The position numbers and the translations under genes were made by a program. The notes beneath the pieces are model-generated. The model saw only the letters and a list, made by a program, of their open reading frames with translations, ran no database searches and had not been told where the DNA came from. Positions 22,707 through 52,940 of a DNA stretch of 64,000 nt are shown here, in pieces. Source of the DNA: Hydrotalea sp. Lineage in GTDB: Bacteria; Bacteroidota; Bacteroidia; Chitinophagales; Chitinophagaceae. The stretch's first letter is position 1; each line of letters opens with the position of its first letter. Location of the stretch: the NCBI GenBank assembly GCA_022402565.1, contig JAKRSC010000027.1, forward strand, positions 25,060 to 89,059. Reading direction: 5' to 3'.

Positions 22707-23141
22707 AGTCTTTGGTTTTTGGTCTTTGGTCTTTGGTCTTTAGTCTTTAGTCTTTGGTCTTTAGTCTTTGGTCTTTAGTCTTTGGTCTTTGGTGTCATAG
22801 CCTTTGTTATTGGAACTCCAAACAAAAATTGGATTGTTTTTTATGTGGGATTAAAAAAATGTATTGCTATAAGAAGTCTATTACATTTTTATTGTTCTTT
22901 TCCCTACTTTCTTTTGCTTTCCGCCCCCAAAAAATTTTGGGGCGGATCACTAAAGGCCTACAGTGCAAACGGTCCCTGAGGCTTCCCGAAAAATCGGGAC
23001 AGGTCCCGAATGCTTACCCTGAGCTTCCCGAATAGTCGGGACAGGTGTCGAAGGGGATCGGTCAGGCTTCGAAGGGCCGTGCATTTTGCCTTGCCCACGC
23101 GCCAACTCCAGTCCGCCCAAAAGATTTTCATTTGGGCGGAC
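22707..23141 (+). repeat. mosaic intergenic repeat, copy R1 (heptamer array + body B + palindrome P + module C + 2x module D + hairpin)
   Basis: 22707-22790 is 12 tandem heptamers (GGTCTTT/AGTCTTT). 22791-22920 is the AT-rich body GGTGTCATAGCC...CCCTACTTTCTTTTGCTTT. 22921-22945 is CCGCCCCCAAAAAATTTTGGGGCGG, followed by ATCACTAAAGGCCTACAGTGCAAACGGTCCCTGAGG. Two TTCCCGAAnAnTCGGGACAGGT units follow. 23111-23141 is the hairpin GTCCGCCCAAA-N9-TTTGGGCGGAC. Near-identical blocks recur at eight or more other sites. Confidence 0.9.
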
Positions 23142-23747: not shown

Positions 23748-24332
23748 ATGGCGGATAAAAATCTTTACATAATTGCTGGTTGTAATGGTGCGGGCAAGAC
23801 GACAGCGTCATTCACTATTTTACCCGAAATTATTGACTGTAAAGAGTTTATAAATGCCGATGAAATTGCCAAAGGGCTATCACCGTTTCAACCCGAAAAG
23901 GTATCTTTTGAAGCTGGACGAATTATGCTGAATAGAATAGCAGAACTGTTAGAGAGTAATGAAAGTTTTGCTTTTGAAACAACTTTATCGACAGTAAGTT
24001 ATAAGCAGAAAGTTTATGAAGCGAGACAAAAAGGATTTAACATAACACTACTTTTCTTCTGGCTTCAGAGTGTAGAGTTAGCAAAGGAACGAGTCAAAAT
24101 TAGGGTTACAGAAGGCGGACATAATATTGAGCCAGATGTTATTGAAAGACGATATCTTAGAGGAATAAAAAACTTGTTCAACATTTACCTTCCTATTGTA
24201 GATGGCGCATTAATTTTCGACAACTCGTTTGGCAAACATATCTTAATTGCAAAACAAATGATAGGCAATGATTTAGAAATTATTGACAGTTCAAAATTCA
24301 CCCTTCTAAAAAAGTATCATGACAACGACTGA
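23748..24332 (+). CDS. zeta-toxin-like / COG4185-type P-loop kinase-fold ATPase
   Basis: 194 aa. Walker A at the extreme N-terminus (IIAGCNGAGKTT), a FETTLS segment, and size and architecture typical of zeta-toxin family proteins. Confidence 0.65.
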   Translation: MADKNLYIIAGCNGAGKTTASFTILPEIIDCKEFINADEIAKGLSPFQPEKVSFEAGRIMLNRIAELLESNESFAFETTLSTVSYKQKVYEARQKGFNITLLFFWLQSVELAKERVKIRVTEGGHNIEPDVIERRYLRGIKNLFNIYLPIVDGALIFDNSFGKHILIAKQMIGNDLEIIDSSKFTLLKKYHDND

Positions 24333-24468
24333 AAAACAGGCTGAACTCTACAATAAAATACTTTTAGGACTTGAAAAGGTTTATGAAAAACTAATTGAGT
24401 TTAAAAAGCAAAAGAAGTCCGAACTTGTTGTTATGAAGGGCAACAAGATTGTAAAAGTAAAACCTTAA
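24319..24468 (+). CDS. 49-aa micro-ORF overlapping the zeta-like gene by 14 nt (possible partner/antitoxin)
   Basis: ATG at 24319, TAA at 24466-24468. Product: MTTTEKQAELYNKILLGLEKVYEKLIEFKKQKKSELVVMKGNKIVKVKP. Below the 60-aa ORF-track cutoff. Predicted helix plus a short beta tail, lysine-rich. Confidence 0.35.
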   Translation: MTTTEKQAELYNKILLGLEKVYEKLIEFKKQKKSELVVMKGNKIVKVKP

Positions 24469-24567: not shown

Positions 24568-25031
24568 AGTCTTTAGTCTTTGGCCTTTAGTCTTTGGTCT
24601 TTGGTGTCATGGCCTTTTTTTGGAATTCCGAACAAAAATTGGATTGTTTTTTATGTGGGATTTAAAAAATGTATTGCTATAAGAAGTCTATTACATTTTT
24701 ATTGTTCTTTTCCCTACTTTCTTTTGCTTGAACAAAAGAAAGTAGCAAAGAAAATTCAAGTGTTTACACCCTGACCGAAAGCGTCAGGAGCAAACCCAAT
24801 TCCGCCCCATTAAAAATTATGGGGCGGACGTTTTGGCTGGCCAACGCCACCATCGCTGAAAGCCTGCTGTCCACGCGGACCTCAGCGAGCCGCTGTGTCC
24901 AGCTAGGCTAGCAATGCGTTTCTATAATCGCATTTTTAAAAAGCATAAAAAAGGTACATAAGGTAAGAAAATGCTGCACTTCAGCTAGTATTTTAAATGA
25001 ACCAAAGACCAATACCCAAAGACTAAAGACC
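24568..25031. repeat. mosaic repeat copy R3, bounded by inverted heptamer arrays (MITE-like architecture)
   Basis: Left end 24568-24602 is 5 heptamers (AGTCTTT...GGTCTTT). Body B runs from 24603. Hairpin 24714-24745 is CTACTTTCTTTTG-cttgaa-CAAAAGAAAGTAG. GC-clamp hairpin 24802-24827 is CCGCCCCAT-N8-ATGGGGCGG followed by ACGTTTT. The module C tail ends ...CCGCTGTGTCCAGCTAGGCT at about 24910. Right end 25004-25031 is 4 inverted heptamers (AAAGACC AATACCC AAAGACT AAAGACC). Confidence 0.85.
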
Positions 25032-26454: not shown

Positions 26455-26590
26455 TTGTCCCCTTTACCGAAATCATCCCGCACGGCCCCTGAGGTTCCCG
26501 AATGGTTAACCGGGGGTTCGAGAGCCTCACCCACCGGCTGAAATTATAGGTCCCTGAAGTTCCCGAATAATAGGGACAGGTCTCGAAGAG
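26455..26590 (+). repeat. repeat modules G + D
   Basis: TTTTTGTCCCCTTTACCGAAATCATCCCGCACGG (compare 31545-31575), then CCCTGAGGTTCCCGAATGG...GGTTCGAGAGCCTCACCCACCGG (found inverted at 31930-31975), then GTCCCTGAAGTTCCCGAATAATAGGGACAGGTCTCGAAG. Confidence 0.8.
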
Positions 26591-26878
26591 TTGTTTTTTG
26601 CCTTTAGTCTTTGGTCTTTGGTGTCATGGCCTTTTTTTGGGAATTCCGAACAAAAATTAGATTGTTTTTTATGTGGGATTAAAAAAATGTATTGCTATAA
26701 GATGTCTATTACATTTTTATTGTTCTTTTCCCTACTTTCTTTTGCTTTCCGCCCCCAAAAAATTTCGGGGGCGGATCACTAAAGGCCTACAGTGCAAGCG
26801 GTCCCTGAGACTTTCCGAAGGACCGGGCTGTTATCAACTAAAGACCAATTCCCAAAGACCAAAGACAGAAAAAACAAC
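26590..26878. repeat. mosaic repeat copy R4: compact 289-bp unit with ~30-bp imperfect terminal inverted repeats (MITE-like)
   Basis: Left end is GTTGTTTTTTGCCTTTAGTCTTTGGTCTTTGG. The reverse complement of the right end is GTTGTTTTTTCTGTCTTTGGTCTTTGGG. Internally it has body B, palindrome 26749-26774 CCGCCCCCAAAAAATTTCGGGGGCGG and a truncated module C. The right end touches the AbiEii stop codon (26878-26880). Confidence 0.85.
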
Positions 26879-28433: not shown

Positions 28434-28644
28434 AGTTTTCGGTCTTTTGTCTTTAGTATTTGGTCTTTGGTGTATGGAACTCCAAACAAAAATTAGACTG
28501 TTTTTTATGTTTGATTACAACAATGTATTCCAAGCCTAGCTGGGCACAGCGGTCCATCGGCATGCTAAGAGACCGCTTGCACTTTAGGCCTTTAGTGATC
28601 CGCCCACAAAATTTTTTGGGGGCGGAAAGCAAAAGAATGTAGGA
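28434..28644. repeat. mosaic repeat copy R5 with internally inverted C/P/B-tail modules
   Basis: Heptamers at 28434-28468. The B head is GGTGTATGGAACTCCAAACAAAAATTAGACTG.... Then comes AGCCTAGCTGGGCACAGCGG...ACCGCTTGCACTTTAGGCCTTTAGTGATCCGCCCACAAAATTTTTTGGGGGCGGAAAGCAAAAGAATGTAGG, which is the reverse complement of the P+C order seen in R1, R4, R7 and R8, with an internal deletion. Confidence 0.85.
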
Positions 28645-31508: not shown

Positions 31509-32010
31509 GGTCTTTAGTTTTTAGTCTTTAGTCGTTGGCTGTTGGTTTTTGTCCCCTTTTCCGAAGTCATCCCTAACTTGATCAGGGATCTGTTGTTAAT
31601 GAACGCAGTAACCCAGAAGCTAATAATGCTTTTATTGAGTGAAGAGGGTTGGTGGAGTTACGTTTCTACTACAGGAGATCCCGCATTAAATGCAGGATGA
31701 CGTTATGGGGAGGGGCTGGATGACGTTCTTGGAGCGTGCGGAATCTGTTTTTTTGAATGCGGTAACCGAAAGGCCTATTATTCTTATTATGAAAGGGGAT
31801 GGTTTGGTTACGTTCCCACGACGGGAGATCCCCAACGATGAATGTCGGGACTCAAAGCCCGCATTGCCCCTTCGAAGCCTGTCCCGGCCCTTCGAGAACC
31901 TCAGGGACTGGGCATTCGGGAAACCTCAGGTAACTGCTCTCGAACCCCAAATCATAATTCCATACCGGTGGGTGGCCTTCCGGAAACCTGAGGAACCAAT
32001 CATTTCAGCC
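31509..32010 (+). repeat. mosaic repeat region R6 (heptamers + G + 2xE + F + D-type modules)
   Basis: 31509-31550 holds 6 degenerate heptamers. Then come TTTTTGTCCCCTTTTCCGAAGTCATCCCT and the E units (GGGATCTGTTGTTAATGAACGCAGTAACCCAGAAG; GCGGAATCTG..GAATGCGGTAACCGAAAGG). F is at 31811-31866. D-like CCCCTTCGAAGCCTGTCCCGG...CATTCGGGAAACCTCAGG follows. The 116-aa ORF at 31690..32040 lies wholly inside this region. Confidence 0.8.
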
Positions 32011-32728: not shown

Positions 32729-33076
32729 GGTTGTTGGTCATTTTTTGGTCTTTTGTCTTTGGTCTTTGGTGTCATGGCATTTGTTATTGGAACTCCAAAT
32801 AAAAGTTAGATTGTTTTTTATGTGTGATTACAAAAACGTTTTGGTATAAGAAGCCTATTGCATTTTTATTGTTCTTTTCCCTACTTTCTTTTGCTTTCCG
32901 CCCCCAAAAAATTTTGGGGTCGGATGGTTCGAATTGCCAAAACATCACTAAAGGCCTACAGTGCAAGCGGTCCCTGAGGCTCTCGAAGGGCCGCGCGTTT
33001 TGGCTGGCCAACGCCACCATCGCTGAGTGCCTGCTGTCCACGTGCTGCTCAGCGAGCCGCTGTGTCCAGCTAGGCT
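32729..33076 (+). repeat. mosaic repeat copy R7 (heptamers + B + P + C)
   Basis: Heptamers at about 32729-32767. Body GGTGTCATGGCATTTGTTATTGGAACTCC.... Palindrome at 32899-32923, with an extra segment (about 20 nt) containing GGTTCGAATTGCCAAAAC. Full module C ends ...GCTCAGCGAGCCGCTGTGTCCAGCTAGGCT. Confidence 0.9.
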
Positions 33077-33276: not shown

Positions 33277-33520
33277 AAAGACCAACAACTAAAGACCAAC
33301 AACTAAAGACCAAAGACCTACTTCCAACCAAAGACCAACAACTAAAGACCAAAGACCTACTTCCAACCAAAGACCAACAGCTAAAGACCAAAGACCTACT
33401 TCCAACTAAAGACCAACAGCTAAAGACTAAAGACCTACTTCCAACTAAAGACCAACAGCTAAAGACCAAAGACCTACTTCCAACTAAAGACCAACAGCTA
33501 AAGACTAACAAACAAAGACT
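33277..33520 (-). repeat. higher-order tandem repeat: 5 full 39-bp units (plus partial ends) built from AAAGACC-type heptamers
   Basis: Units start at 33291, 33330, 33369, 33408 and 33447. The unit is AAAGACC-AACA(A/G)CT-AAAGAC(C/T)-AAAGACC-TACTTCC-AAC(C/T), i.e. 5x7+4 nt. The period was verified from CCTAC positions 33317, 33356, 33395, 33434 and 33473. 39 nt equals 13 codons, which explains the artefactual 114-aa ORF at 33182..33526. Confidence 0.95.
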
Positions 33521-38924: not shown

Positions 38925-38932
38925 TTGGGGTT

Positions 38933-39270
38933 GGTCTGTGGTCTTTGGTCTTTGGTCTTTAGTCTTTGGTCTTTAGTCTTTGGTTGGAAATGTTTTTTAC
39001 CCTACCTACACCCTCGAGTAGGAATCTCCCGTCGTGGGAACTCAATCATTTAACTCCTATTCTTTATATCCCTACTTTCTTTTGCTTTCCGCCCCCAAAA
39101 AATTTTGGGGGCGGATCACTAAAGGCCTACAGTGCAAGCGGTCCCTGAGGCTCCCGAAGGGCCGCGCATTTTGCCTTGCCCACGCCACCATCGCTGAATG
39201 CCTGCTGTCCACGTGGTCCCTGAGTATGCCGAAGGGTGCTGCTCAGCGAGCCGCGGTGTCCAGCTAGGCT
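38933..39270 (+). repeat. mosaic repeat copy R8 (heptamers + inverted F + B-tail + P + C)
   Basis: About 8 heptamers at 38933-38988, starting 9 nt after the flippase stop. GAATCTCCCGTCGTGGGAAC is inverted F. CCCTACTTTCTTTTGCTTTCC follows. Perfect palindrome 39089-39124 CCGCCCCCAAAAAATTTTGGGGGCGG. Full module C runs to 39270. Decayed pieces continue to the next gene: a hairpin remnant at about 39385-39415 and AATGACC-AAACACC at 39516-39529. Confidence 0.9.
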
Positions 39271-39538
39271 AAACAATTCGTTCTTAATTTAATTTCTTAA
39301 AGTCCAAAGCACCGTTTTTTGTCTTCACAAACCACTATGACAGATTCATTCGTAGCTGAGTAATCAATTCCAATTCTTCTTATCCCTACAGTTTTTCAAG
39401 AAAAAGAAAGTAACAGATTGTTTAAAAGAAATTCATGTATTTCATCAGGATATCTGCTACCGTGAAAAGGTTATAGCAATACTTCAACACCTTAAGTGAA
39501 AGGGTTTGGCAACCCAATGACCAAACACCACCATCCCT

Positions 39539-39970
39539 CTACCCTACATTCCTTTCAAAATTTTCCAAAGGATGATTGCGCCAATTGGGATCGTATTTTA
39601 CAAACCAACTGATCCATAAACTTCTTGATAAACGCATAAAAAGAGGCTGCAAAACAATTAACAAAACTGCGTTGGTAGCTAACCAATAAAACAAACTATT
39701 GTCCATGATAGAGATGCCCAATAAAACCCACCAAGCTATAAAAGTGGCAACCGAAAACGCAACAGTCAAAGCATAGCTTACATATCCCGTTCCATAGTAA
39801 AATCCAACTTCAATTTCAGTTGGCTGACCACAAACTGGACAGGTTGCATGCATGGTTGTTATCTTATTGAGGATATATGGATTTTTATGTACAAATAAAT
39901 TTCCCTCACGACAGCGAGGACATTTACATTGAAGCGTAGCACCTAAATATGTAGAACTCTTCTTACCCAT
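39539..39970 (-). CDS. DUF983 domain-containing membrane protein
   Basis: 143 aa. CPRCREGNLF...CPVCGQPTEIEVGFYYGTGYVSYALTV followed by two TM helices. Confidence 0.7.
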   Translation of the reverse strand: MGKKSSTYLGATLQCKCPRCREGNLFVHKNPYILNKITTMHATCPVCGQPTEIEVGFYYGTGYVSYALTVAFSVATFIAWWVLLGISIMDNSLFYWLATNAVLLIVLQPLFMRLSRSLWISWFVKYDPNWRNHPLENFERNVG

Positions 39971-40087
39971 CTTACATCACTTAATTTAGTTTCAAAGGTA
40001 ATAAGGATCACAAATGCTTCATGTGATAAATGTTACTGAAAAACAAGCTGTTCAACAGATGTATTATCTTTATCCGCAAAACAGCAC

Positions 40088-40219
40088 ATGAATCTATTAC
40101 AAGTTGCTGCCGATTCAACATCTTTCGGCTACAGAATTGGGTATCAAATTGGCTCTTGGGTGCCCTTTGTATTCATTGCAGTGCTGGTATTTGCTATTCT
40201 CCGTAAACAAAGACGTTGA
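40088..40219 (+). CDS. 43-aa micro-ORF encoding a single-TM peptide, coupled to pnuC
   Basis: MNLLQVAADSTSFGYRIGYQIGSWVPFVFIAVLVFAILRKQRR. Its TGA (40217-40219) overlaps the pnuC TTG start (40216-40218) as TTGA. Below the ORF-track cutoff. No homology evidence available. Confidence 0.3.
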   Translation: MNLLQVAADSTSFGYRIGYQIGSWVPFVFIAVLVFAILRKQRR

Positions 40220-40851
40220 ACCAGTTCATTACTTCATTTTGGGAAGGACTCACACAAACCAGCTTGTTAGAATATATAGCTGTCATTGCTGGCATTGTGA
40301 GTGTTTGGTTCAGTCAACGTGAACAAGTTTGGGTATATCCAACTGGTCTCATCAATACTTCATTATTCATTTATATCTGCTGGGAAGGTCAGCTTTTTGG
40401 AGAAGCTAGCGTGAACCTTTATTATACCATCATGAGCTTATACGGATGGTGGCTGTGGACTAGAAAAAATGAACAAGCAGAAACTGTTTGGAAGATTCAA
40501 TTTTCGACCCAGAAAGAATGGGTTATGCAACTCTTGTTCTTTGGCGTAACCTATGGCTTGCTGTTTTCAGCAATCAGCTGGTTGCAAAGTTCATTCGCTC
40601 CAGATGCTATACCATGGGCTGATGCCTTAGCAAGTGCAAGTGCATACACAGGCATGTGGCTCATGGCAAGAAAAAAAGTGGAAAGCTGGTATTGGTGGAT
40701 ACTTACAAACATTACTTCCATTCCTTTGTTCTACATAAAAGGTTATGTATTTACAACTGTACAGTTCATGGTTTTATTACTGATGGCATTGTATGGTTGG
40801 AAAGCATGGCAAAAAAAAGCATTGATTCAAGAGGAAAGTAAAACTGAATGA
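40216..40851 (+). CDS. pnuC: nicotinamide riboside transporter PnuC
   Basis: 211 aa with about 7 TM segments. SLLEYIAVIAGIVSVWFSQREQVWVYPTG... and WYWWILTNITSIPLFYIKG are typical of PnuC. Confidence 0.8.
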   Translation: MNQFITSFWEGLTQTSLLEYIAVIAGIVSVWFSQREQVWVYPTGLINTSLFIYICWEGQLFGEASVNLYYTIMSLYGWWLWTRKNEQAETVWKIQFSTQKEWVMQLLFFGVTYGLLFSAISWLQSSFAPDAIPWADALASASAYTGMWLMARKKVESWYWWILTNITSIPLFYIKGYVFTTVQFMVLLLMALYGWKAWQKKALIQEESKTE

Positions 40852-41390
40852 GTTTAAAAAAAGTAGTAATACTAGGACCTGAGAGCACTGGAAAAAGTAC
40901 TTTGTCGGCCGCTTTGGCCGATCATTTTCAGACATATTGGTGCCAAGAATATGCAAGGGAGTACCTTCTAAAGCATGGCAATAAATATAGCTTGGAACAA
41001 CTCACTGAAATTGCAAAAGGGCAATTAGCATTAGAAGATGCATACACACAAAAAGCAATAGATGATGGGAAGTCATTGTTGTTTATTGATACCGATATGC
41101 AGGTAATGAAAGTGTGGAGTGAATATGTTTTTGGCACCTGTGACCCTTTTATTCTTGAAGCTCATGCTCAACGGTCGTATGATTTGTATTTATTATGCGC
41201 ACCCGATTTACCTTGGGTTGCAGATGAATTGAGGGAATATCCCGATGAAGGCCCACGTAAAGAACTATTTGCAATATACCAATCGCATTTAGCGATGCAA
41301 TCTACACCTTGGGTGGTCATTAGTGGTTTGCAAGAAGAGCGAACAAAAATGGGTATTCAAGCAGTTGAACATCATTTAATGAGCTGTTGA
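40848..41390 (+). CDS. NadR-C-terminal-like P-loop kinase (ribosylnicotinamide kinase type)
   Basis: 180 aa. VVILGPESTGKSTL Walker A. ATGA overlap with pnuC. The pnuC plus AAA-ATPase pairing is the classical NR salvage arrangement. Confidence 0.65.
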   Translation: MSLKKVVILGPESTGKSTLSAALADHFQTYWCQEYAREYLLKHGNKYSLEQLTEIAKGQLALEDAYTQKAIDDGKSLLFIDTDMQVMKVWSEYVFGTCDPFILEAHAQRSYDLYLLCAPDLPWVADELREYPDEGPRKELFAIYQSHLAMQSTPWVVISGLQEERTKMGIQAVEHHLMSC

Positions 41391-42082
41391 ATATCTGAAT
41401 CATCTTCCAAATTATTCATTTGACGAATGATCCAGTTTTTCTTCCAACCAACAAACCGACTCATTGGTACAACTGTATATTTTTTAGGATTAGGTAAACA
41501 GGCTATAATCTGCGCAGCTTCTTGTCGGTTTAATTTTGATGCTGATTTTTTGAAGTAGTGTTGCGCTGCAGCTTCTATACCAAATATACCCGGACCCATT
41601 TCAATGCAGTTCAAATACACTTCTAAAATTCGCTTTTTACCCCAAACCAATTCAATCCATGCAGTGAACCAAAACTCTGGAATCTTACGTAGGTATTTTG
41701 TAAATCCAGAACCCTGCCACAAGAAAACATTTTTTGCTACTTGTTGAGAAATTGTGCTCGCACCTGCTCCTCTAGGTAATTTCTTTTTTCTCTTGCTTGG
41801 CTTTTCTGGGTCAAGACTTTTTCGGAGAGCTTCCCAGTCAAAGCCATGGTGATCAGTAAATGCTTGGTCTTCACTGGCAATAGCTGCGAGCTTTACATGT
41901 TTACTAATTTCATTGTAAGCCACATAATCGCGTTTAAGTCCATATTGTACACCCTGTACCATTTGGGTAATTGTAACGGGTGGCATCATCCATTTACAGA
42001 TCAAGAGATAAATACTGGAACTGATAAGCATCCAATAAAATATGCGTACAATTTTCCGAAATACTCCTTGCTTAATTTTCAT
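41372..42082 (-). CDS. mtgA: monofunctional peptidoglycan glycosyltransferase (GT51)
   Basis: 236 aa. N-terminal TM, SEDQAFTDHHGFDW, GASTISQQVAKN and RKIPEFWFT motifs. Its 3' end overlaps the convergent kinase gene by 19 nt. Confidence 0.85.
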   Translation of the reverse strand: MKIKQGVFRKIVRIFYWMLISSSIYLLICKWMMPPVTITQMVQGVQYGLKRDYVAYNEISKHVKLAAIASEDQAFTDHHGFDWEALRKSLDPEKPSKRKKKLPRGAGASTISQQVAKNVFLWQGSGFTKYLRKIPEFWFTAWIELVWGKKRILEVYLNCIEMGPGIFGIEAAAQHYFKKSASKLNRQEAAQIIACLPNPKKYTVVPMSRFVGWKKNWIIRQMNNLEDDSDIQQLIK

Positions 42083-42097
42083 GAAAAGATATTTATA

Positions 42098-43102
42098 TCA
42101 CTGCTTTATTCTCAAAAAAAACCCACAACAATCGCCTTGTTTGGATGCATTTAATTCTTGAGCTTGCTGATTGAATGATACAATTTGTTTTTTAGAGAAG
42201 ATACTATTATGGGGATCAATAGCATAAGAATGTTGATCATGTAAAGAAATATTTTGAAGATATTGTTCACTGCCCCAAAATTGAAATGCTGTACTATCAA
42301 ACACACAATGATACAATTCCATATTACAACGATTGGCTAATGTAGCTATGGCCTTTTGTGTAAATACATAATAATGTCTTGGCGCATCAATCTGCACCCA
42401 GTTTTCCGCATATTGCAACCATGCTTTTGAATCACTTACCGGTACTCTTATCAAAATGGTACCATTGGGCGCAAGTAGTTCTTTTATTTGTTGTAAAACT
42501 TTCTCTGGATCAGACATATGCTCAAAGGCATGATGCATCATAATCACATCCCATTTACCTTGAATTTCGTCAACCTCTTTTTTTTGAATTTGTAATCCAT
42601 TATCATACAGTATATCACTCTCAATAAAAGCATCTACACCTAAAAGGTGCTCACAGCCCCAATCTTTTAAATCAAACAACAAATGGCCAGCTCCACAACC
42701 AATATCTAAAACCCTGGTCGATTTTTTAATTTTTAGTGTTGCAAGCATTTGCATGGTAGAATTGGGGCGCAGTTGAAATAAGATTTTTCCAATCAGATTA
42801 TTATAACCAAGCGCATAGCTATTCTTGAGATTCTTCAACCATTTTTTTAAAAAATTACCTGATGATTTTTGAGAGAAACTGTAATAATCGGATGGATAAT
42901 AAAGCGACATGTTTTGCGGTGGGTCGAGAAGTTGGAGGCATCCACAATTAGCACATTGTTGATAATGAAAATCATCTCTTAAGCCCAACATCATTTCTTT
43001 CACTTTGAAAACCTTATGATGACCCTCCTGCTTACAAATACCGCAAGGTTGTGAACATTTTAATTCATTTGATAGAACGTCATGGTCGATTGATGTGAGC
43101 AT
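42098..43102 (-). CDS. class I SAM-dependent methyltransferase with N-terminal zinc-ribbon
   Basis: 334 aa. CGICKQ...CANCGC followed by VLDIGCGAGHLL. Same architecture as 350..1342. Confidence 0.7.
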   Translation of the reverse strand: MLTSIDHDVLSNELKCSQPCGICKQEGHHKVFKVKEMMLGLRDDFHYQQCANCGCLQLLDPPQNMSLYYPSDYYSFSQKSSGNFLKKWLKNLKNSYALGYNNLIGKILFQLRPNSTMQMLATLKIKKSTRVLDIGCGAGHLLFDLKDWGCEHLLGVDAFIESDILYDNGLQIQKKEVDEIQGKWDVIMMHHAFEHMSDPEKVLQQIKELLAPNGTILIRVPVSDSKAWLQYAENWVQIDAPRHYYVFTQKAIATLANRCNMELYHCVFDSTAFQFWGSEQYLQNISLHDQHSYAIDPHNSIFSKKQIVSFNQQAQELNASKQGDCCGFFLRIKQ

Positions 43103-43261: not shown

Positions 43262-43472
43262 CTCCACATCTCTCTCAGCGCCCTTACCCAGCACCCCGAT
43301 GCGGGATCTGCCGTTCATGAACGTGGTAACCGAGAAAACTAGAATGCTTTTTTTGAATAATTAATCAGCTATAAATAAATCTATCATAATGGTTCCTGAA
43401 GACACAAACCAAGGCCAAAAGCCAAAGACTAAAGACCAAAGACTAAAGACCAAAGACTAAAGACCAAAGACT
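43262..43472 (-). repeat. repeat copy R9 (module E + inverted heptamer array)
   Basis: CCCCGATGCGGGATCTGCCGTTCATGAACGTGGTAACCGAGAAAACTAGAATGCTTTTTTTGAAT (compare 31580-31640). 43410-43472 holds about 9 heptamers (AAAGACT/AAAGACC alternating), ending 5 nt from the S10 peptidase stop codon. Confidence 0.85.
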
Positions 43473-43477
43473 AACTA

Positions 43478-52642: not shown

Positions 52643-52940
52643 AGTTTTTGGTCTTTCGTCTTTGGGGTCATATTCCAAGTCCTGATATAGGTTGACGATT
52701 TTCAACTACCGCCTTCTCGCACAGTTTATGAGCCTACCGAAGATGCCATAATTTCTGATAAAACCAATTCATTTTTAGCATCTCTCTGTTACTTTCTTTT
52801 TCTTGAAAAAAAGAAAGTAACCAAAGAAAATTCAAGGCAAACATGAACGCTCCGCGCATTTTGCCTTACCACGCCGCCATCGCTGAAAGCCTGCTGTCCA
52901 CGTGCTGCTCAGCGAGCCGCTGTGTCCAGCAAGGCAAGCT
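52643..52940 (+). repeat. mosaic repeat copy R10 (heptamers + unique spacer + hairpin variant + C tail)
   Basis: 3 heptamers at 52643-52663, 10 nt after the LysE stop. Hairpin 52788-52821 is GTTACTTTCTTTTT-cttgaa-AAAAAGAAAGTAAC followed by CAAAGAAAATTCAAG (same as R3). The C tail is GCGCATTTTGCCTTACCACGCCGCCATCGCTGAAAGCCTGCTGTCCACGTGCTGCTCAGCGAGCCGCTGTGTCCAGCAAGGC. Confidence 0.85.

Follow-up and report, generated by a model that had tools for sequence, protein, structure and literature searches.

Polar GGTCTTT heptamer arrays bracket hairpin-mosaic spacers at gene boundaries in the glycan loci of a Hydrotalea genome

A stretch of 64,000 nucleotides from the freshwater bacterium Hydrotalea sp. 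(contig C20, positions 25060 to 89059; hereafter the window) was analysed for the arrays of the heptamer GGTCTTT that lie between its genes. The genome to which the window belongs (G000) comprises 2.98 Mb in 35 contigs, and it was compared with four other genomes of the genus (G001 to G004), of which G003 is approximately 85% identical to G000 and syntenic with the window. Between 17 and 39 kb, the window carries a polysaccharide locus with two Wza-like exporters, a chain-length determinant, a UDP-glucose dehydrogenase, glycosyltransferases, a polymerase, and a flippase, and small selfish genes (Zeta_toxin-like, AbiEii/AbiEi, addiction-module antidote) are scattered through this locus. The array-bearing blocks, R1 and R3 to R10, are listed below by their window positions.

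22707-22793, plus strand: R1 array, 12 (R)GTCTTT units, 199 nt upstream of a minus-strand wza-like gene (start 22508), followed by modules A-B-C-D.
24568-24605, plus strand: R3 left array, five units (AGTCTTT, AGTCTTT, GGCCTTT, AGTCTTT, GGTCTTT), downstream of the zeta-toxin-like gene and its 49-codon open reading frame (ORF).
24606-24998, no strand: R3 interior, the AT-rich module A (96% identical to R1 and R4), then the hairpin modules CTACTTTCTTTTGCTTGAACAAAAGAAAGTAG, CCCTGACCGAAAGCGTCAGG, and TCCGCCCCATTAAAAATTATGGGGCGGA, and block E/F.
24999-25031, minus strand: R3 right array, AAAGACC, AATACCC, AAAGACT, AAAGACC (three good units and one degenerate), 49 nt downstream of the stop codon of the minus-strand UDP-glucose dehydrogenase gene.
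26590-26878, no strand: R4, 289 bp, composed of GTTGTTTTTT, 3-4 units, modules A-B-C-D, 3-4 units, and AAAAAACAAC.
28441-28475, plus strand: R5 array, 4-5 units, 74 nt upstream of the minus-strand AbiEi-like gene.
31509-31553, plus strand: R6 array, 4-6 degenerate units, 180 nt upstream of the second wza-like gene.
32729-32770, plus strand: R7 left array, upstream of a minus-strand pair of an antidote gene and a probably decayed killer gene.
33277-33520, minus strand: R7 right side, AAAGACC units in a 39-bp repeat of 5.6 copies, ending 38 nt before the start of the glycosyltransferase operon.
38931-38984, plus strand: R8 array, 7-8 units, starting 7-9 nt after the flippase stop codon, with a degenerate right arm at 39516-39529.
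43418-43474, minus strand: R9 array, 7-8 units in a 14-bp alternation, ending 4 nt before the stop codon of the minus-strand S10 peptidase gene.
52643-52663, plus strand: R10 array, 3 units, starting 10 nt after the lysE stop codon.

In the window, GGTCTTTGGTCTTT was matched 45 times with at most two mismatches, compared to 0.70 matches expected, and this number was reached in none of 100 shuffles. Tandem Repeats Finder returned period-7 arrays at all places that had been named in an earlier reading made from the letters of the window alone (hereafter the sequence-only reading). That reading had counted five GGTCTTT-type heptamers at the left end of R3 and four AAAGACC-type heptamers at its right end, had described imperfect inverted termini of about 30 bp with heptamers in R4, had paired the left array of R7 with a right array at 33277-33520, and had noted that the copy number differs from block to block. 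All four observations were reproduced, and the unit counts (12 in R1, 5+4 in R3, 3-4+3-4 in R4, 4-5 in R5, 4-6 in R6, 7-8 in both R8 and R9, and 3 in R10) agreed with its figures to within 1-2 units. The arms of R3 are 30 nt long, 87% complementary, and 402 nt apart, with an alignment score of 40 against a shuffle maximum of 25; the terminal inverted repeat (TIR) of R4, the most compact two-armed copy, spans 32 nt with a score of 38 against a shuffle maximum of 26, and the right end of R4 overlaps the AbiEii stop codon by 1 nt. By DNA alignment, the heptamers make up the entire inverted repeat, apart from 10 nt more in R4. A longer TIR in R3 was hinted at by the RNA fold, and the DNA alignment gave only approximately 30 nt of array. 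The proposal that the arrays form inverted termini thus holds for the outer edges of R3, R4, and R7, where the orientation is inverted as proposed; however, about half of the blocks are one-armed, since only a left array is present in R1, R5, R6, and R10 and only a right array in R9.

The interiors of the spacers are shuffled mosaics of GC-rich hairpin modules. Module A, an AT-rich segment of 130 bp, directly follows the left array and is 93-96% identical among R1, R3, and R4, 88-92% identical in R7, and approximately 80% identical in R5. It is followed by the hairpin modules B, C, D, E/F, and G in a conserved order, with individual blocks present or absent, so that R1, R3, R4, and R7 have the array and A-B-C-D in common at 88-96% identity. 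Contig C35 has four copies of the central 170 bp of R3, which are 97-99% identical and face either way with respect to the arrays. When the RNA folding of R3 and R4 was compared with that of shuffled sequences, z-scores of -11.6 and -4.9 were obtained, respectively, and the arrays paired as the outermost stem. Rfam and tRNA scans of the 64-kb window gave no match.

Genome-wide, G000 contains about 20 array blocks, with units of 110-950 bp that hold no credible ORF. Arrays and interior modules are restricted to C20 (47-78 kb), C13 (29-51 kb), C21 (0-53 kb), C35, and C22, with a single isolated array on C17; the array regions number four, cover roughly 110 kb of 3 Mb, and all lie around glycan loci. 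They also hold the glycan genes gmd, fcl, wzc, wza, and wzz and a sugar transferase gene, together with the small genes PemK, HicB, Fic, NUMOD4/HNH, and 23S_rRNA_IVP, and the toxin-antitoxin, 23S-IVP, and HNH genes are located between arrays. Housekeeping genes in their native synteny are flanked by arrays as well (metG, fusA, a fadB-like gene, bcp, a carB fragment termed carB', and lysE). The contigs of G000 often stop inside the repeats, and the end of C13 and the start of C21 are evidently the two halves of one gmd-fcl junction with an element between the genes.

The four other Hydrotalea genomes all have heptamer arrays. Elsewhere in the family, sampled with one genome per genus (150 genomes), three perfect (R)GTCTTT units turned up only once. 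Array lengths, whose polymorphism the sequence-only reading had proposed to measure, differ between G000 and G003 at six orthologous boundaries.

lysE boundary: 3 units in G000, 4 in G003.
S10 peptidase boundary: 7-8 units in G000, 3 in G003.
Flippase boundary: 7-8 units in G000, 2 in G003.
C17 methyltransferase boundary: 6 units in G000, 4-5 in G003.
DUF983-like gene boundary: 2 decayed units in G000, 4-5 units in G003.
Leader of the glycosyltransferase operon (5' side): approximately 240 bp in G000, 3-4 units in G003.

The same gene boundaries therefore carry arrays in both genomes, but orthology does not extend to the interiors. G003 lacks module A and has its own 122-bp array-loop-array foldback unit at three or more sites. 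What is kept at orthologous boundaries is the array, with a changing number of units, and the interior gives way to the variant that dominates in each genome. In the lysE-murF interval, a PIN-domain gene pair is present in G003 and missing from G000. Three contig starts of G003 (C11, C23, and C31; L013 1-174, L290 1-235, and L291 1-70) end in the 122-bp unit, a homogenised foldback specific to this lineage, at which the assembly of the glycan locus of this genome is interrupted.

Empty sites, for which the sequence-only reading had suggested looking in relatives, were also found. At the gmd-fcl junction, G004 has an empty spacer of 40 nt (L025 1951-1990; TGGCTGA TGGTCGA TAGACCA TAGC) that contains a GGTC-GATA-GACC hairpin; this spacer resembles a minimal inverted pair of degenerate heptamers, from which the foldback may have arisen or which it may have left behind. 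The corresponding spacers of G000, G001, and G003 measure 500-700 bp and carry arrays. In G001 and G003, the gmd stop codon is followed by 5 nt, (GGTCTTT)3, a loop, and (AAAGAC)3-4, and then by the 23S_rRNA_IVP gene, a second foldback, and the start of fcl. In G002, an array lies directly upstream of fcl, before the contig end, and in G000 a mosaic of at least 495 bp extends across the contig break (C13:49276-51180 with C21:1-378). The 23S_rRNA_IVP gene, which encodes a four-helix bundle, is located downstream of fcl in G000 and between gmd and fcl in G001 and G003, and it always lies between arrays. Five further boundaries (fusA, metG, fadB, bcp, and carB') are empty in G002 and G004, which have either a hairpin with a T-run terminator or directly convergent genes at these positions. 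All five are filled in G000, and G003 has arrays or modules at fusA, metG, and carB'. At fusA in G000 (C35:10100-10810), the terminator was kept and the array begins right after its T-run. Since empty sites exist and the array lengths vary, the pattern on which the sequence-only reading was to fail (no empty or filled sites, identical lengths) is not what the genus shows. The target-site duplications that it had proposed as a check were not found at R3, R4, R7, or C35:10229-10727, and none was recognisable in the filled-versus-empty comparisons, in which the whole spacer is replaced.

Array-bearing spacers also mark the breakpoints of rearrangements. Between spacers of G003 that match R8 and R9, the segment spanning the DUF983-like gene and mtgA (window 39539-42053) has the opposite orientation, and a SAM-methyltransferase-like gene (window 42098-43102) is missing from G003 at this inverted block. 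On C21, the block order A-B-C-D-E of G000 corresponds to A-E(inverted)-D-B-[10 kb specific]-C(inverted) in G003, with arrays at every junction. An array-bounded element and then a fadB-like gene come after fusA in G000, where rpsJ is found on another contig (C35:10100-10810, C25:20750-20872), while G002 and G004 keep the order fusA-terminator-rpsJ.

The arrays are polar with respect to the genes. The GGTCTTT strand points away from the adjacent gene, whichever way that gene runs: by crude ORF calls, the nearer gene was on the 5' side for 24 of 30 arrays in G000 (p=0.0014), and most of the exceptions were spurious ORFs in repeats or inner arrays of tandem series. The first unit lies 0-10 nt 3' of a stop codon in more than 12 cases (among them flippase, S10 peptidase, lysE, metG, bcp, carB', pirin, the C17 methyltransferase, and AbiEii). 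The gap between an array and a start codon is 7-200 nt, with 7-38 nt for several start codons. Since the arrays read away from the genes at both edges of a spacer, each spacer is bracketed by inward-facing arrays. Under this rule, the inverted termini of R3 may equally be regarded as one 3' array for each of two convergent genes or as a single spacer-filling unit with inward ends.

An enzyme linked to the arrays was sought in G000, and no transposase, REP-associated tyrosine transposase (RAYT; REP, repetitive extragenic palindromic sequence), reverse transcriptase, or integrase was found to be so linked, DDE transposase families not having been searched one by one; a transposase whose own ends carry GGTCTTT repeats, as the sequence-only reading had envisaged, was likewise not found within the same limit. 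The single reverse transcriptase gene (PF00078) is on C34 and not near arrays, none of the six tyrosine recombinases (PF00589) lies in an array region, and self-BLAST with inspection of the small contigs revealed no multi-copy insertion sequence (IS). Two Y1 transposase genes (Y1_Tnp, PF01797) were found on C14 (165200-166100; 32100-32830), with flanking repeats unrelated to the heptamer arrays: an IS200-like gene is preceded by 48-bp tandem hairpin repeats, GCGACCCCGATGGGGTCG, and a RAYT-like gene is followed by REP-like palindromes, GCGCGAGTTTGCAACTCG. A RAYT/IS200 link was rejected, as these repeats differ from the heptamer family. No integron core sites (RYYYAAC/GTTRRRY) were seen at the ends of R3 and R4, and a scan for sigma-70 and terminator consensus sequences showed no enrichment over shuffles.

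Other features of the window and of neighbouring repeats were recorded as well. The gene before R3 (23748-24468) encodes a Zeta_toxin/AAA_33-like ATPase without an upstream antitoxin, and a lysine-rich ORF of 49 codons overlaps its 3' end. Near R7, the frame upstream of the antidote gene (PF21716; 32311-32620, minus strand) has stops in all three frames and probably represents a killer gene that has decayed. No genus mate had a DNA match to the zeta unit, the second wza gene, or the antidote unit. The 39-bp higher-order repeat on the right side of R7 (33286-33505) has 5.6 copies with 97% matches, and its array spacing recurs on C21 (42978-44241 and 48712-48803) and C13 (28983-29035).

Outside the genus, an exact scan for (RGTCTTT)4 with one genome per species gave at least 119 contigs, and the matches listed include Acidobacteriota (many Pyrinomonadaceae), Bacteroidota, Gammaproteobacteria, Chloroflexota, Planctomycetota, and others. 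Among the matches listed from other phyla, the 5' side of the GGTCTTT strand had the nearer gene in 54 cases versus 22 (p=3e-4), and the distance from the array to an ORF end was at most 15 nt for 32 of 93 on the 5' side versus 8 of 88 on the 3' side (p=6e-5). Convergent pairs outnumbered divergent ones by 9 to 1 among the matches listed, including units in Pyrinomonadaceae and Lewinellaceae; the interior of one Bacteroidota unit (L098) is a plain terminator hairpin. A reversed control heptamer was likewise widespread among the matches listed, with a polarity bias that was weaker and of the same sign. Heptamer arrays are therefore generic and GGTCTTT is not special among them, and presence across phyla is no evidence of transfer. 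The polarity in other phyla, together with convergent pairing in Acidobacteriota and other Bacteroidota, points to a general mechanism. The architecture, which the sequence-only reading had called an unusual design, has precedents, as polar heptamer arrays are known for GGGNATC (PMC4692102) and GGTCTTT arrays, often in convergent pairs, occur in several phyla. Arrays of other heptamers were observed in neighbouring lineages, namely TTGTCTA/TTGTCCA/TTGTTAA over approximately 230 bp (L006 1380-1610, G034), TAGTCCT/TAGTCTT (L004 1480-1550, G028), TAGTCTA and ATGGACT (L007 1740-1850, G004), and the reversed unit TTTCTGR in several genera of the family.

Taken together, we read the GGTCTTT arrays as polar heptamer microsatellites at gene boundaries, placed in convergent pairs around hairpin-mosaic spacers, which change by slippage and by host recombination and conversion and which have probably replaced terminators; we give this reading a probability of about 0.5. 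Replication slippage would alter the copy number of the arrays, often by 14-bp steps. Arrays of 30-85 bp and modules with 97-99% identity would together provide dispersed homology, on which host recombination and gene conversion could invert, excise, re-insert, and homogenise array-bounded segments, and template switching within the hairpin may generate or repair the second arm. The units would then act as recombining foldback spacers without a dedicated transposase, and they probably stand in for an ordinary terminator at the gene end. Several observations weigh against this reading. Five boundaries are filled only in the G000/G003 lineage, and the colonisation of array-free sites is not supplied by homology-driven recombination alone. 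Copies within a genome are 93-99% identical compared to 85% between species, which would also fit a recent burst of true transposition, and the restriction to four regions around glycan loci could equally reflect local hopping. The tight abutment to stop codons is explained neither by slippage nor by recombination, and slippage, recombination, and terminator function are themselves all inferred.

Since new sites have been colonised and the copies are very similar, the blocks may still be non-autonomous miniature inverted-repeat transposable elements (MITEs) or foldback transposons, in which an enzyme acting in trans would bind the arrays as multi-site termini and move whole units like R4, with slippage occurring after insertion. 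The inverted arrays at both ends of R3, R4, R7, and many units in relatives are consistent with this, as are the compactness of R4 (289 bp with its 32-nt TIR), the array with A-B-C-D shared by R1, R3, R4, and R7 at 88-96%, interiors that resemble deletion derivatives of a longer A-B-C-D-E-F unit, the five sites gained in the G000/G003 lineage, and the polymorphic gmd-fcl junction. However, the two-armed copies all lack a target-site duplication, half of the blocks are one-armed with an inverted repeat that is microsatellite only, and no array-linked transposase, RAYT, reverse transcriptase, or integrase was found in the IS-poor G000. Moreover, the arrays persist at orthologous sites while the interiors change, and heptamer arrays occur in many phyla with unrelated interiors. 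We consider such a transposon unlikely, and the MITE-like unit of the sequence-only reading is not upheld, as it is without a target-site duplication, an enzyme link, or an extended TIR, and its interior is a shuffled mosaic that is replaced between species. It is similarly doubtful, though compatible with the reading of polar microsatellites and not exclusive of it, that the arrays are primarily a boundary signal, in which (GGUCUUU)n after a stop codon would pair with (AAAGACC)n in the leader to form a long stem that terminates, insulates, or is processed (e.g., by RNase III), mobility being secondary; in a variant of it, the A-rich leader would serve Shine-Dalgarno-independent translation in Bacteroidota. 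The short distance of arrays from stops (0-10 nt downstream, more than 12 cases) and from several starts (7-38 nt upstream) would fit such a signal, as would the folding of R3 and R4, which surpasses that of shuffles by a wide margin (z = -11.6 and -4.9) and has the arms paired. The orthologous sites of G002 and G004 have classical terminators that are missing in G000, the array at fusA directly follows the terminator T-run, the L098 unit encloses a plain terminator hairpin, and regulatory roles have been proposed in the literature for TAACTGA and Nostoc heptamers. The element within the gmd-fcl operon, also cited in favour, must be transcribed through. Nevertheless, the arms are often unequal (12 vs 4; 5 vs approximately 17) or one is absent, the terminator-like scan was not enriched over shuffles, the copy number is not conserved between species, and the orientation-independent polarity is equally explained by an element-end model.

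Shuffling by a site-specific recombinase, with the array-loop-array foldback as an attC-like site and toxin-antitoxin and glycan genes as cassettes, appears very improbable. Cassette-type genes do occur singly between foldbacks (Zeta_toxin, AbiEii/AbiEi, antidote, PemK, HicB, Fic, 23S_rRNA_IVP, and PIN in G003), the foldback, like attC, begins directly behind the ORF stop, and the position of the IVP cassette differs between genomes; yet no integrase lies in or near the array regions, RYYYAAC/GTTRRRY cores were not found, the cassettes stand in both orientations, and metG, fusA, bcp, carB', and lysE are flanked as well. We give hardly any credence to an invertible phase-variable promoter, in which R3-like segments of a capsule locus would be flipped between inverted arrays. 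The locus does encode polysaccharide export and synthesis, and inverted repeats flank a 400-bp segment, but R3 lies between two convergent 3' ends and thus has no gene to switch, no invertase is nearby, housekeeping genes are flanked likewise, and the right end of R3 was present in the reference orientation only (Logan contigs from one run, identical to the window and evidently of the same strain). As a long shot, the arrays could be recognised or synthesised by an undiscovered, widespread activity at gene ends, either a shuffling of cassettes (recombinase-independent or by an unknown enzyme) in which array-loop-array foldbacks would be the portable attachment sites, or a telomere-like templated addition of repeats to 3' ends. 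If true, this would explain the gene-distal G/T-rich polarity, the abutment to stop codons, and the convergent pairing across unrelated phyla.

Bacterial heptamer repeats have been on record since 1990. The five Hydrotalea genomes form a comparative series in which boundaries with and without arrays, length changes, interior turnover, and breakpoints at arrays can be followed. The series makes the function of heptamers testable with respect to termination, RNA processing, and recombination at gene ends, and it hints at a way in which a genome with almost no insertion sequences may reshuffle its glycan loci and toxin-antitoxin genes.

Among known systems, MITEs such as the Correia elements of Neisseria are small non-coding intergenic units with inverted termini that may carry hairpins or terminators, and the Foldback transposons of eukaryotes have termini made of tandem sub-repeats, which vary in number between copies and ends and promote rearrangements; both families have target-site duplications and a cognate transposase. 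The array blocks share with MITEs their small size, the lack of coding sequence, the multiple copies, terminal inverted repeats (array only, and half of the blocks are one-armed), and presence/absence polymorphism. Unlike members of either family, the GGTCTTT units are without a target-site duplication and no cognate transposase was seen. The blocks are similar to integron attC sites in that an imperfect inverted repeat of variable length directly follows a small promoterless ORF and toxin-antitoxin cassettes are common; unlike integrons, the GGTCTTT regions are without IntI or conserved cores, the gene orientations are mixed, and core genes are flanked too. In cyanobacteria, Mazel et al. reportedly described in 1990 the short tandemly repeated repetitive (STRR) heptamers CCCCAGT, TTGGTCA, and CAACAGT in intergenic DNA, and Elhai et al. 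are said to have found in 2008 that small dispersed repeats are embedded in such heptamers. The STRR2 unit TTGGTCA is one base from TTGGTCT, CAACAG(C/T) also occurs inside the 39-bp unit of R7, and small mobile inserts lie in a heptamer context; however, the STRR sequences belong to another phylum, are distributed genome-wide, and are not said to bracket whole spacers.

The interiors are reminiscent of bacterial interspersed mosaic elements, REP mosaics, and REPINs (PMC3116915), as palindromic hairpin modules occur in variable combination and orientation after gene ends. However, REPs are single imperfect palindromes that are distributed genome-wide and tied to a RAYT gene flanked by its own REPs (PMC3116915), whereas the GGTCTTT arrays are microsatellites in four regions. 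The TAACTGA direct repeats of Beggiatoaceae, Cyanobacteria, and some Bacteroidetes show a patchy spread across phyla (MacGregor 2015, PMC4679880). Their long Bacteroidetes arrays are mixed with other heptamers, the spacers of relatives are shorter and repeat-free, indels in 7-nt steps separate strains, and a role in gene rearrangement has been suggested (PMC4679880). The GGTCTTT arrays are likewise intergenic, patchy across phyla, and replaced by shorter array-free spacers in relatives; TAACTGA, in contrast, lies mostly just upstream of start codons in the forward direction and has been proposed as a site for translational regulators, and an inverted-pair or foldback layout is not described for it (PMC4679880). 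According to a preprint on Nostoc, heptamer arrays affect the expression of recF and recO. The GGGNATC or GGGGA(C/T)T repeats of Xanthomonas and Nostoc are tandem 7-nt, mostly intergenic repeats of 2-26 copies (Rehm et al. 2015, PMC4692102). They are almost always nearer to the 5'-neighbouring ORF whatever its orientation, at most 50 bp after a stop (coding strand) or before a start (non-coding strand), their length varies between species at conserved sites, inverted pairs occur, no IS link was found, and their function is unknown (PMC4692102). The GGTCTTT arrays resemble them in being tandem, intergenic, proximal to the 5' ORF, and variable in length at orthologous sites. The GGGNATC repeats are G-rich, form G-quadruplexes, prefer four units, occur genome-wide, and are associated with stable regions (PMC4692102); unlike them, the GGTCTTT arrays are T-rich, are located in a few regions rich in glycan and toxin-antitoxin genes, bracket hairpin mosaics, and lie at rearrangement breakpoints. 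The arrays belong to the class of heptamer repeats known from cyanobacteria, Xanthomonas, Beggiatoaceae, and some Bacteroidota, and this Hydrotalea lineage has them in a convergent (GGTCTTT)n ... (AAAGACC)n arrangement around whole spacers filled with shuffled hairpin modules.

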